From an uncultured archaeon (GTDB lineage Archaea > Asgardarchaeota > Thorarchaeia > Thorarchaeales > Thorarchaeaceae): a DNA stretch of 12,087 nt. The stretch spans positions 1 to 12,087 of the forward strand of contig CAYYQL010000056.1 in assembly GCA_964473825.1 (NCBI GenBank), given 5' to 3'. The translations under genes were made by a program, and so were the position numbers. Below are positions 4,767 to 10,497 of this stretch, in pieces (position 1 is the first letter of the stretch; each line of letters begins with the position of its first letter). Under the pieces are notes generated by a model. It was given only the letters and a program-made list of their open reading frames with translations, was not told the DNA's origin and did not search any database.

Positions 4767-6068
4767 CTAGCCTCCCTGAGCCAATATTATTGTGGCTTTC
4801 ATCGCAGCTGCACTGCCAGCTGTTACCGAGTCAGGAATGTCCTTGGGACCGTCTGCACAGCCGCATACAAAGATACCAGGCATCTTTGTATCGACAGGCC
4901 CGAAGTAATGGTGTGATACGTCTACGTAGCCGTCTTCACGAACAGACACCCCTAGCTTCTTCGTCATTGTAAGAAGGTCGTCAGGAGGAACGATACCGGG
5001 ACTCAGAACAACAAGGTCATGCTCAACATCCATAGGCTTCGCTGAAAGCGTATCCTCAACTTTTACCGCCAATCGGCCCTTCTTCGTTCTCGTGACTTCT
5101 GCAACCCGACCTCGTACGAAGTTGACACCGAAACGTGTACGGGCCATCTCGTAGAACTCCTCAAACCCCTTTCCAAAGGCACGGATGTCGGCGTAGTAAA
5201 TGTTTACCTCAGCATCTGGTAGGTGTTCCTTTGCCATCACGGCGTTCTTAATCCCGTACATACAACACACCCGTGAACAGTAGGGCACGCCTTTTGCAAC
5301 ATCTCTTGCTCCGACGCACTGGATAAATCCGATAGATTTTGGAATCTTACCATCGCTGAGTCGGATGAGATGTCCATGCGTTGGACCAGCAGCGTTTATC
5401 AGCCGCTCATATTCCATAGCGTCAATAACATCTGGAATCCTAGCGTAACCCAGACGAGGGTAGCGGCTCACATCAAACATCTCATAACCTGTTGCTAACA
5501 CGATCGCGCCGACCTTGAAATCTAGTCGTTCGTCCTGCATTTCCAGATCAATAGCGTCTCTTTCGCACTCGTTTATGCACCGCTTGCATCGTATGCAACT
5601 GTCCATGTCTATCGTGTACACATTTGGTGTAGCCTGTGGAAAGGGGGTATAGATTGCCTTTCTTATGCCGAGACCGCGGTCAAACTCATTCGGGACTTCA
5701 ACCGGACATACCGCAGTACAATCTCCACAACCAGCACATTTCTCTTCATCAACGTAGCGAGAGCGCTTGATTACAGTAACCCTGAAATCCCCAACCTTCC
5801 CTGAAACGGCCTCTAAATCCGCGTTCGTAATCAGCTCGATATTAGGATGGCGGGAGACCTCACTCAGTCGTGGTGTGAGTATGCATGCCGAACAGTCAAG
5901 AGTGGGAAATGTTTTGTCCAATTGAGCCATTCTACCGCCGATGGATGGTGACTTCTCAAGTAGATATACTTTGTATCCTTGATTTGCGATGTCTAGAGCT
6001 GCCTGCATTCCAGCAACTCCGCCTCCCACTACTAATGCGCTGTTATTGGGTTTCTCGTCTGACATCAT
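4767..6068 (-). CDS. hdrA: Short HdrA-family flavoprotein: FAD domain + central 2[4Fe-4S] ferredoxin, lacking N- and C-terminal Fe-S domains
   Basis: Has [59 protein letters not shown]...[12 protein letters not shown] and [9 protein letters not shown]. ATGA overlap with hdrB. Confidence 0.93.
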   Translation of the reverse strand: [433 protein letters not shown]

Positions 6069-7743: not shown

Positions 7744-10497
7744 TTAACTCTTCTCTTGATATTTGTTAAGGATGATAGTCGCTCTCATCGCTGCCGCACT
7801 ACCAGCCGATACTGAATCAGGAATGTCCTTGGGCCCATCTGCGCATCCGCAAACAAAGACACCAGCAAGCTTTGTGTCCACCGGGGTAATAACCCGGTCA
7901 GCCACATCTATGTACCCATCAATTGCCAGATCCATACCCAGCTCTACAACCATATCGCTCATTCCCTCTGGCGGTTGAATGCCCGGACTCAGGACAATCA
8001 AATCATGCTCGACATTATGGAGAATCTCCTTTTCTGTATCCTCCACTCTGACAATCAGATTCCCGTTCTCCTCGTTTTCAATAACTTCTGAAACGCGACC
8101 ACGAACGAAGTTCACACCGAAACGTGTACGAGCCATCTCGTAGAACTCTTCAAATCCCTTTCCAAAGGCCCGGATATCAGCGTAGTACATGGTGACCTCA
8201 CAGTCTGGATGGTGCTCTTTCGCCATCACGGCGTTCTTTATCCCGTACATGCAGCACACACGTGAGCAGTAGGGTACACCCTTACTCACATCGCGAGCGC
8301 CGACACATTGAATGAATCCTATATTCTCCGGAATCTTCCCGTCGCTGAGGCGAACAAGATGCCCCTTGGTGGGCCCAGCCGCGTTGATGAGGCGCTCGTA
8401 TTCCATGGCGTGGATAACATTGGCGTACTTGCCGTAGCCGTACTGCGGATACCGTGACACATCGAAGAGCTTGTACCCTGTTGCCAGGACAATGGCTCCG
8501 ACATCGAGGTCAAGTATCTCATCCTTCATGGAGTGATCGATTGCCTCACGGGTGCAAGCATCTACACAAAGCTTACACTCGCAACAATTGGCACACCCAA
8601 GACAGCGCTCAGATTCAAGGCGAGCCACTTCCTCGGTGAAGCCTAGTTCCACCTCAGCAAAGTTGTTACATCGCGAGGCTAGCCCTTGCTTCGGCATCAC
8701 AGCGCCCTTTGACTGTTCTTTGTGGATGGTATCAACCTCATAAGACTGTACACGGTGCAGAGGTTCGGCCCTGCCCTCTTCAATGGAAACTCCTCTTAGG
8801 TAACGATCGATAGACTCCGCAGCCTCTCGCCCCTGACCAACAGCCTTCACAGCTGTAAGCGGTCCTGTGACAATATCTCCTCCAGCGAATACTCCGGGTT
8901 CGCTGCTCTGCATGGTGACTTCATCAATAGTGACAGTGCCCCATTTCGTGCAGTCGCAGTTAGTCTGAACGCCGTGGATGTCTGCTTTCTGGCCTACCGC
9001 CACGATGGCTGTATCTACCGCCATTGTGAACTCAGAGTTCTGGATGGGGATTGGTCTTCTCCTGCCCGAGTAGTCTGGTTCACCCAGGCGCATCTTAACG
9101 CATCTAATTCCAGTGAGTTTTCCATCTGACGACAGGAACTCTGTAGGATTGGTCAAGAGCATGAACTTGACTCCTTCTTCCTTGGCATCCTCCACCTCGC
9201 TTGGAATGGCAGGAATCTCGATGCCTGACCGCCTGTAGACAAGGGTCACCTCTTCGGCGCCTAGACGAACAGCAACTCTGGCAGAGTCAATTGCAGCATC
9301 TCCTCCTCCAACGACCACAACTCTTCTTCCAATCTCTACGTGTTCTCCAGTGTTCACCTTTCTGAGAAACTCCATAGAGTGAAGTACGCCCTCTGAGTCC
9401 TCCCCTCTCACTCCCATATCATTGCATTCCCAGGTTCCAGTAGCGATAAAGACTGCCTTGAATCCTCGTTTCTTCAGTTCTTCAATGGACTCTACTGGAG
9501 TGTTAGGTTTCATCTTGACACCATGGTCGATGACTCTCTGTATCTCCTCATCAAGTATATCGCGAGGCAGCCGATACTCTGGAATCGCATATCTGAGCAG
9601 ACCGCCCAACAGTGGCTCCTTCTCAAAAACGGTAACAGGATATCCCCTGCGAGCCAACTGATACGCACAGCTGATGCCAGCAGGTCCAGAACCAATCACT
9701 GCAACTTGTTCCTCTTTGTCGATGTTGGGCACGACTGGCTCCACCACATCTAGTGTTCGTTCCCAGTCCGCAAGAAACCTGTGCAGGTTCCGTATCTTCA
9801 TGCTCTCATCGAGATAACCACGCTCACACTCACCCTCGCAAAACGATATGCAGACTCTGCCAAGAACGCCAGGAAACGGAATGGAGTCTCTGACAATCTC
9901 AAGAGCCCTAGCATAGTCTCCTGTCTTCATCATCGTGATGAACCCTTGCGCATTGACACGGGCAGGACAGGTGTCTCTGCACGCAGGCTCACCCTTCTTG
10001 TCAATGGTGTACACATTGGGTGTGGCCTGAGGAAACGGAGTGTAGATGGCTTTCCTAAATCCAAGAGATTCATCAAACTCGTTAGGGAGCTCCACCGGAC
10101 ATGTCGACACACAGTCGCCGCATCCTGAACATGCGTCTTCATCAACATACCTCGCCTTCCTCCTAACTCGTACTCGGAAATCGCCCACTTCACCATGAAT
10201 CGACTGGACCTCAGAATACGTGAGTAGTTCGATTCTTGGATGTCGAGAGACGTCACTCAGGCGTGGTGTGAGAATGCACGCGGAACAATCCAGCGTCGGA
10301 AATGTCTTGTCTATTGCCGCCATTCGTCCTCCTATCGAAGGGGACTTCTCAAGCAGATAGGTCTTGAAGCCTTGATCTGCGATGTCAAGCGCGGCCTGCA
10401 TTCCTGCCACCCCGCCGCCTATGACTAGTGCAGCTAGGGTTGTTTCTTCCTCGCGTTCAGTTTGGGAGCTCGGACCAGAAGCCTTCTCGATTGTCAA
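7744..10497 (-). CDS. hdrA: HdrA/HdrL-like flavoprotein: short HdrA core with a ~470-aa GltD/NfnL(SudA)-like FAD/NAD(P)H module inserted in the ferredoxin domain
   Basis: N- and C-terminal parts closely match the 433-aa HdrA. The insert has [70 protein letters not shown] and RCLGC. TTG start after GGAGG. Confidence 0.93.
   Translation of the reverse strand: [917 protein letters not shown]

Follow-up and report, generated by a model that had tools for sequence, protein, structure and literature searches.

In methanogens, the two HdrA protomers of the heterodisulfide reductase complex are linked, in that residue 197 of either protomer serves as a ligand to the other's N-terminal cluster, and low-potential electrons run from the flavin adenine dinucleotide (FAD) to the N-terminal cluster and on to an inserted ferredoxin domain (PMC9012536; PMC13518236). 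Residue K409 hydrogen-bonds N5 of the bifurcating FAD (PMC6405883) and, together with E356, serves as a marker of bifurcation (PMC12054007). Two variations on this plan have been described, both by sequence analysis only: heterodimeric tandem HdrA and an NfnB insertion in anaerobic methanotrophic archaea (ANME) (PMC9012536), and type III HdrA, for whose definition nine sequences from ANME-1 and Bathyarchaeota were used (PMC12054007) and whose class A9 reportedly arose from the short class A6 and occurs in clusters with several hdrA genes (PMC12054007; PMC9012536). In the Stn transhydrogenase, the StnC module binds FAD and reduced nicotinamide adenine dinucleotide phosphate (NADPH) and relays electrons via two [4Fe-4S] clusters to a bifurcating flavin some distance away; the flavin of the module itself is reported as non-bifurcating (PMC10482914). 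Papers on Asgard archaea mention multiple or fused HdrA (PMC11237513) and HdrA selenoproteins (PMC11227280). Here, we describe an operon on a stretch of 12,087 nucleotides (nt) from an uncultured member of the Thorarchaeaceae (contig CAYYQL010000056.1 of assembly GCA_964473825.1, positions 1 to 12,087), hereafter the window, which encodes two short HdrA-like proteins of 917 and 433 amino acids (aa), a single long one of 591 aa (referred to below by their lengths), HdrBC and an Mvh/Vhu-type hydrogenase.

Related genomes, the window's own genome and the conservation of a predicted interface make it well supported that 917 and 433 are alternative partners of one 591 subunit and are swapped for each other. 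On balance it is also probable that the operon encodes the asymmetric heterodimeric HdrA core of an Mvh/Vhu-hydrogenase-HdrBC complex, with 433 and 917 competing for 591 to give two complexes and 917 wiring NADP(H) in series with, or in place of, ferredoxin.

Two short HdrA proteins and their probable long partner

The three HdrA-like proteins and the insert that distinguishes 917 are encoded as follows:

7744..10497, minus strand: 917-aa short-type HdrA with a GltD/NfnB-like insert (open reading frame (ORF) list, BLASTP and domain search)
8590..9999, minus strand: the insert, residues 167-636 of 917, with two [4Fe-4S] motifs and FAD and NADPH-type Rossmann folds
4767..6068, minus strand: 433-aa short-type HdrA, with the flavin domain and an intact inserted ferredoxin domain
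2986..4761, minus strand: 591-aa long-type HdrA, with N-terminal cluster, flavin and C-terminal ferredoxin domains

BLASTP aligns 917 and 433 in two blocks, residues 16-166 with 4-154 at 74% identity and residues 637-912 with 157-431 at 71%, and leaves 470 residues of 917 (167-636; nt 8590-9999) without a counterpart. An earlier note on this DNA had described 917 as 433 plus an insert at about residues 167-637, and this is borne out, the stretches that it quoted being present in both proteins. Aligned with solved HdrA (5odc, 8rvu), both short proteins begin at about residue 140 and stop at about residue 567, so that they consist of the flavin and inserted ferredoxin domains only, with neither the N-terminal domain nor the C-terminal ferredoxin domain. 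The long protein aligns with HdrA residues 1-247 and 326-653 and is devoid of the inserted ferredoxin domain. All three proteins align over the thioredoxin-reductase-like FAD domain of HdrA, with its GxGxxG motif, and keep the cysteines of the HA4 cluster (C386, C399, C403 and C404) in CxG...CSRxCC; none of them has the four-domain HdrA architecture, and all score below the NCBIfam HdrA cut-offs.

The residues that matter for the low-potential route are distributed unevenly. Both short proteins carry the Cys194/Cys197 loop, E356 (in AMEYERL) and K409 (in CCMYGIK); the loop is found in 64/68 short orthologues and kept in all 32 orthologues of 917 (in one with Val for Ala), and E356 and K409 are unchanged in 26 short orthologues. 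At the corresponding sites 591 reads FPADESGAQV, without Cys194/197, LAQLQEL, with Q for E356, and CCSAVAQ, with Q for K409. A cysteine in the Cys-loop position occurs in 0/56 long orthologues, whereas the cysteine motifs at the N terminus of this subunit hardly vary, and Q stands for E356 in the long orthologues aligned; the change of K409 to Q (window 3733-3909) is confined to this lineage (3/56 orthologues), most of the others keeping Lys. The N-terminal domain and Cys197 are split reciprocally between two co-encoded HdrAs, as in the heterodimeric tandem HdrA5/6 type of ANME. Because residue 197 ligates across protomers and the route needs both parts, a long/short pair holds exactly one complete low-potential route. 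The earlier note had called the short subunits catalytic, a label that suits them since they keep K409, E356 and the Cys194/197 loop while the 591 orthologues have lost the loop and E356; the short subunits would then be the catalytic half of the dimer, and 591 its scaffold and input half.

A model of the complex was made for one of the two pairs that the earlier note had proposed to model, 591 (residues 1-505) with 433, and it passes its controls. The interaction prediction score from aligned errors (ipSAE) is 0.92, compared with 0.00 for the best control, the mark applied to this score being reached by 58/80 solved complexes and 2/110 mismatched pairs; the partner has a predicted local distance difference test value of 89 or more, and at least 94% of the contacts are common to the runs. 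In the model, the Cys loop of 433 (residues 58-63) touches the cysteine motifs of 591 (25-28, 58 and 83). This predicted interface is kept in 917, which is identical to 433 at 64/75 interface positions (85%) compared with 244/356 (69%) elsewhere (Fisher p 0.003); furthermore, the ratio of interface to non-interface conservation between 917 and 433 equals that between orthologues, 1.9-2.0, whereas it is 1.2-1.4 for paralogues with other partners.

The insert consists of the Fer4_20 and Pyr_redox_2 domains and matches NfnB/GltD-type chains at E values of 1e-83 to 1e-124. Within the inserted ferredoxin domain it falls exactly between one CxxCxxCxxxC motif and the other, which is the architecture of type III HdrA. 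Its closest solved relatives are of the StnC type (E 1e-102 to 1e-124; 917 170-643 aligned to 101-576), ahead of NfnB (1e-83 to 5jca_L and 4ylf_B). It carries the FAD Rossmann motif GSGPAG and a second Rossmann motif, GGGDAA...VYRRS, which suggests binding of NADPH. The insert starts with CRDTCP and ends with RCLGC, directly joined to the second HdrA motif, and the resulting junction, RCxxCxxC(C)ECxxCxxxC, is kept in 44 insert-bearing proteins. In NfnB the RCLxC segment is N-terminal, whereas it follows the module in 917, StnC, 9n5u and 9bov; the insert is therefore a permuted form whose two ends should meet at one cluster. In its permuted order, its FAD and NADPH motifs and its two [4Fe-4S] clusters the insert agrees with StnC, but the unusual cluster-ligand position, Lys170 in StnC and Glu in NfnB, is a His here (IRNLHRF; window 9750-9770, about residues 243-249 of 917), and this His is conserved where the motif is found, in 37/44 Thorarchaeota inserts of both short and full-length types. 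The insert differs from NfnB also in the position of the RCLxC segment, at its C-terminal end, and no NfnA-like gene is present in the window.

Exchange of the short subunits among related operons

The survey of related genomes comprised 75 loci, with one genome per species; the best 80 loci are almost all from Thorarchaeota, with no locus of ANME-1 or Bathyarchaeota included. The arrangement of the window, 917-hdrC-hdrB-433-591, is found in about 23 of the 75 loci, followed by 917-hdrC-hdrB-591 without 433 (about 10), by (hdrC-hdrB-)917-591 with 917 in the slot of 433 (about 8) and by hdrC-hdrB-433-591 without 917 (8, plus 2 that are cut); a fifth layout is a paralogous cluster with a full-length insert-bearing HdrA of about 1126 aa. 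In three metagenome-assembled genomes (MAGs), the 917 operon and the 433 operon are separate. Five genomes with 433 only are devoid of any insert-bearing HdrA and have stand-alone NfnB only, and five genomes with 917 only contain no 433 orthologue. In the tree of the long subunits, the 591s of 917-only operons are nested among those of trio operons, which indicates that the same partner was kept when 433 was lost.

These results agree with the earlier note, which had counted a single 591, HdrBC and Mvh set in the window (confirmed by domain annotation), had taken 917 and 433 for alternative partners of 591 and had asked whether 917 has a dedicated partner elsewhere in the genome: such a partner was searched for and not found. 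Two further suggestions of the same note fared differently. It had considered that NADP+ might replace the disulfide branch, but hdrCB is always present in the operons where 917 is the sole short subunit, which argues against such a replacement. It had also proposed separate control through the 279-nt gap between the 917 gene and hdrC; this junction is 20 nt or less, or overlapping, in 24/35 loci, and the other 11, with long spacers, cannot be aligned from one lineage to another, so that the gap belongs to certain lineages and is no general feature of control. In the two genomes nearest to the window only the hdrC-proximal part of about 100 nt (7465-7566) is conserved, the rest having diverged. 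This block may represent a terminator, a 5' leader or an internal promoter, although such a promoter would not be a property of the system. The block, in which CATATAC precedes TTTTTTG, is near-identical in the 91%-identical genome. A search of the window with Rfam gave no match, and an ORF of 84 codons in the spacer (7470-7724) is probably not a gene: its identity in the two nearest genomes is 80% and 46%, compared with 96% and 89% for the flanking genes, and it has neither a counterpart elsewhere nor a Pfam match.

The window's own genome, which is 95.7% complete, contains several other HdrAs: fused short-long proteins of 1150 aa (with MvhD) and 1035 aa, a canonical HdrA of 702 aa, and a 416-aa short protein beside a 751-aa long-MvhD fusion, the fused and adjacent forms being located on contigs C3 (loci L002 and L003) and C30 (L005) of this genome (G000). 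The asymmetric HdrA plan is thus used at least four times in this one genome. No orphan long subunit is found in it, each of the other long modules being fused or adjacent to its own short module; the sole exception is an HdrA-MvhD fragment at the end of a contig (C43), which is not typable.

In the core tree, calculated with the insert removed, insert-less and insert-bearing proteins separate, and their subtrees mirror each other. The mirrored subtrees of the 917 and 433 types indicate that the duplication is old, and the phylogeny reads as two copies, both under constraint, that descended in parallel, 433 having been lost several times. The same ground led us to reject a duplication of recent date, or gene conversion, for 917 and 433, with the exception of locus L062, on long branches. 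A quick tree, in which the insert-bearing proteins formed a grade, had raised the origin of 433 from 917 by loss of the insert; however, a single insert-bearing clade is not rejected by the approximately unbiased test (p value 0.82) and even scores better, so that the direction may be either. Between the 917 type and the type of about 1126 aa, the inserts are 49-57% and the cores 41-59% identical, which gives no indication that the insert was recently transferred from one to the other. This larger type, which is apparently absent from the window's own genome, occurs in other Thorarchaeota (L047-L053, L070 and L087) in the order hdrC-hdrB-hdrC'-hdrB'-[~1126-aa insert HdrA]-mvhD-[446-aa short]-[582-aa long]-[115-aa protein].

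The 917 type is common, with about 90 clusters (90%-identical, about 910-936 aa) among the 120 best matches listed; where named, these are mostly Thorarchaeota proteins labelled 'FAD-dependent oxidoreductase'. Type III HdrA is therefore no rarity of ANME-1 but is common in Thorarchaeota under this label.

Proposed mechanism and alternatives

From the domain anatomy, the complementarity, the swapping and the conserved interface we infer how the complexes would assemble, which cofactors they would contain and what they would catalyze. In either complex the short subunit would bring a bifurcation-type flavin pocket (E356, K409), the HA4 cluster leading to HdrBC, Cys197 as a ligand of its partner's N-terminal cluster and the arm formed by the inserted ferredoxin domain. 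Two old short paralogues, 433 and 917, would compete for one 591, giving two complexes: with 433 the ferredoxin arm would be free, as in the canonical H2:disulfide/ferredoxin enzyme, and with 917 a GltD/NfnB-like module would be spliced into this arm. The ferredoxin-facing cluster of the insert would then adjoin the clusters of the HdrA arm, so that NADP(H) would act in series with ferredoxin or replace it. As to the reaction, we tentatively prefer, because of the solved StnC precedent and of the proposal published for type III HdrA with mvhADG (PMC12054007), that the flavin of HdrA would have NADPH as its mid-potential substrate, with coupling to the reduction of a disulfide by HdrBC and H2 formation by Mvh, or the reverse. 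Somewhat unlikely, in our estimation, is that NADP+ would instead take low-potential electrons from H2, in which case its reduction would be possible at very low H2. Hardly probable is a closed thiol/disulfide loop in which the 917 complex would reduce the disulfide with NADPH and evolve H2 while the 433 complex would run in reverse, re-oxidising the thiols with reduced ferredoxin for more H2; at high H2 the direction of the loop would be reversed, the net reaction being 2 NADPH + reduced ferredoxin <-> 3 H2. The disulfide would then be only an internal mediator, which would explain the presence of HdrBC in non-methanogenic Asgard archaea without known heterodisulfide metabolism.

The genes could also be read in other ways. 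The fact that all three genes share an operon, whose junctions are tight in most of the trio loci, and the higher-order assemblies formed by methanogen Hdr (PMC13518236) would suit a single super-complex, for example of two 591 heterodimers bridged by HdrBC or Mvh, that holds 917, 433 and 591 together and joins ferredoxin and NADP(H) in one particle; however, operons that have just one of 917 and 433 are frequent and contain the same orthologous 591, the 591 model shows a single dimer interface of the HdrA type, and there is only one gene set for HdrBC and MvhD, so that we regard such a particle as improbable. A similarly slight chance is given to the insert being a second bifurcating site as in NfnB, with the low-potential arms joined head to head, as suggested for HdrA9-11 of ANME-1: the NfnB-like sequence and the retained Arg equivalent to NfnB R201 (PEYRLP) speak for this idea, which has been raised before (PMC9012536), but no NfnA-like high-potential partner is encoded in the window, the Glu ligand of the NfnB proximal cluster is His, and the insert is nearer to, and permuted like, the StnC modules, with their non-bifurcating flavin (PMC10482914). 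Very improbable, finally, is that 917 functions without 591, by forming a homodimer or by pairing with a different long HdrA module elsewhere in the genome, in which case it would be an independent NADPH-linked Fe-S flavoprotein whose adjacency reflects co-regulation. That hdrCB and the spacer with its conserved hdrC-proximal block lie between 917 and 433-591, and that the C43 fragment is untypable, would fit this possibility; against it, in about 8 species 917 is found directly upstream of 591, in the slot of 433, its invariably kept Cys194/197 loop is useful only beside the N-terminal cluster domain of a partner, its predicted interface is as conserved as between orthologues, and all other long modules have a short module of their own.

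Several points weigh against two competing HdrA complexes built on one 591. There are genomes in which 917 and 433 are each provided with a separate 591, HdrBC and MvhD, so that sharing is not obligatory and specificity could have evolved, and the apparent losses may be assembly gaps because MAGs are incomplete. Since HdrA homodimers are already solved, the pass of the 433-591 pair shows likeness rather than binding, and the interface positions are also the most conserved in general. As for the cofactors, the His ligand means that cluster properties are not transferable from NfnB or StnC, and the type III proteins of ANME have been argued to use NADH, not NADPH (PMC12054007).

The remaining operon and comparison with described systems

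All genes of the operon are on the minus strand, in the order 917, spacer, HdrC, HdrB, 433, 591, MvhD, 82-aa protein, MvhG and VhuA, with one HdrC, one HdrB, one MvhD and one MvhG/MvhA set. The features besides the HdrA genes are:

7465..7743, minus strand: 279-nt spacer, from the 917 gene to hdrC
6943..7464, minus strand: HdrC-like subunit with two [4Fe-4S] clusters (profile match)
6065..6943, minus strand: HdrB-like subunit with two CCG domains (profile match)
2542..2985, minus strand: MvhD/VhuD [2Fe-2S] subunit (profile match)
2303..2551, minus strand: conserved 82-aa protein, with no family assigned
1383..2306, minus strand: MvhG/VhuG-like hydrogenase small subunit (profile match)
70..1386, minus strand: VhuA-like [NiFe] hydrogenase large subunit, without the C-terminal metal-binding motif
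1..55, minus strand: start of a VhuU-like peptide carrying the C-terminal motif that is absent from the VhuA-like subunit

Apart from the 279-nt gap, the junctions vary between an overlap of 10 nt and a gap of 5 nt, with 14 nt after MvhA, and the two nearest loci are 97% and 91% identical to the window. The best profile matches of the hydrogenase subunits are the VhuD, VhuG and VhuA models, all under the model cut-offs; with MvhD, a small subunit and a large subunit whose C-terminal Ni-binding motif is on the separate VhuU-like peptide, the set has the make-up of a Group 3c Mvh/Vhu [NiFe(Se)] hydrogenase. The VhuA-like ORF of 438 aa stops at a TAG at 72-70 and the small ORF begins at 55, both on the minus strand, a split of the large subunit likewise seen in VhuA/VhuU of Methanococcus. 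In the 97%-identical locus (L025; 20442-20560), the counterpart of the window's 1-55 (minus) is a small ORF that reads MTDEIDEGLLNLLEMVVRCYDC-TGA-LSCGAH; the TGA at the Ni-ligand position implies a selenocysteine and hence a predicted [NiFeSe] enzyme.

The 82-aa protein, 38-96% identical between operons, is placed between mvhD and mvhG in nearly every related operon, and the paralogous clusters have a relative of 112-137 aa at the same place. It has no Pfam or NCBIfam match and is probably an unrecognised subunit or assembly factor. Its origin as the split-off tail of a 'long MvhD' was rejected, since those MvhDs were over-extended ORFs and gave no BLAST match. Upstream of the 917 gene there are about 400 nt of apparently non-coding DNA, and a Cys-rich DUF2769 protein of 96 aa (E 7.5e-13) is encoded upstream of the operon at 11561-11851 on the minus strand.

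HdrB and HdrC score below the coenzyme B (CoB)-coenzyme M (CoM) equivalog cut-offs. To our knowledge, CoM or CoB synthesis is not known in Thorarchaeota, and CoM-S-S-CoB is not expected there. Since Asgard archaea have no known CoM/CoB metabolism, the role of Mvh-Hdr is open in models of hydrogen-based syntrophy. The natural swapping described here provides a comparative and biochemical system in which to ask how HdrA bifurcation comes to use NADP(H) in place of ferredoxin, and which of the two halves of the asymmetric dimer is catalytic. We found nothing in the literature on these proteins in Asgard archaea, nor on a trio with a shared partner. The earlier note had seen in the locus a candidate for an undescribed system, which goes too far, as heterodimeric tandem HdrA and the type III insertion have been published for ANME-1 and Bathyarchaeota (PMC9012536; PMC12054007); what appears to be new, from the literature searched, is the shared-partner trio and its spread in Asgard archaea.

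Compared with described systems, the operon combines features that occur elsewhere in separate settings. The methanogen MvhADG-HdrABC (5odc, 8rvu; PMC13518236) has the same subunit set, flavin pocket, HA4 cysteines and arm from FAD through the N-terminal cluster to the inserted ferredoxin domain, with position 197 (Cys or Sec) linking the protomers, but it is a symmetric homodimer with four domains per protomer, no NAD(P)H module and CoM-S-S-CoB as substrate. The module spliced into 917 is the same permuted GltD/NfnB-like module as in StnC of the Stn transhydrogenase (8oh5; PMC10482914), where the host scaffold is NuoG/FdhF-like rather than HdrA and the ligand is Lys170 rather than His. In the tandem HdrA5/6 and HdrA12/13 of ANME, a neighbour copy with Cys197 and without the N-terminal domain has led to the prediction of a symmetry-breaking heterodimer (PMC9012536), whereas here two alternative Cys197 copies are available for one long copy, and the inserted and C-terminal ferredoxin domains are split reciprocally as well. 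Also close, likened by description, is type III HdrA, the class A9/HdrA9-11 of ANME-1 (PMC12054007; PMC9012536), which carries the same GltD/NfnB-like module of about 470-500 residues in the inserted ferredoxin domain and keeps K409 and E356; unlike it, the Asgard protein has an NADPH-type motif, is represented by about 90 clusters among the matches listed rather than by nine sequences in a survey, and is encoded together with hdrBC and a complete Mvh/Vhu hydrogenase in one operon, beside an insert-less paralogue and a single long partner.

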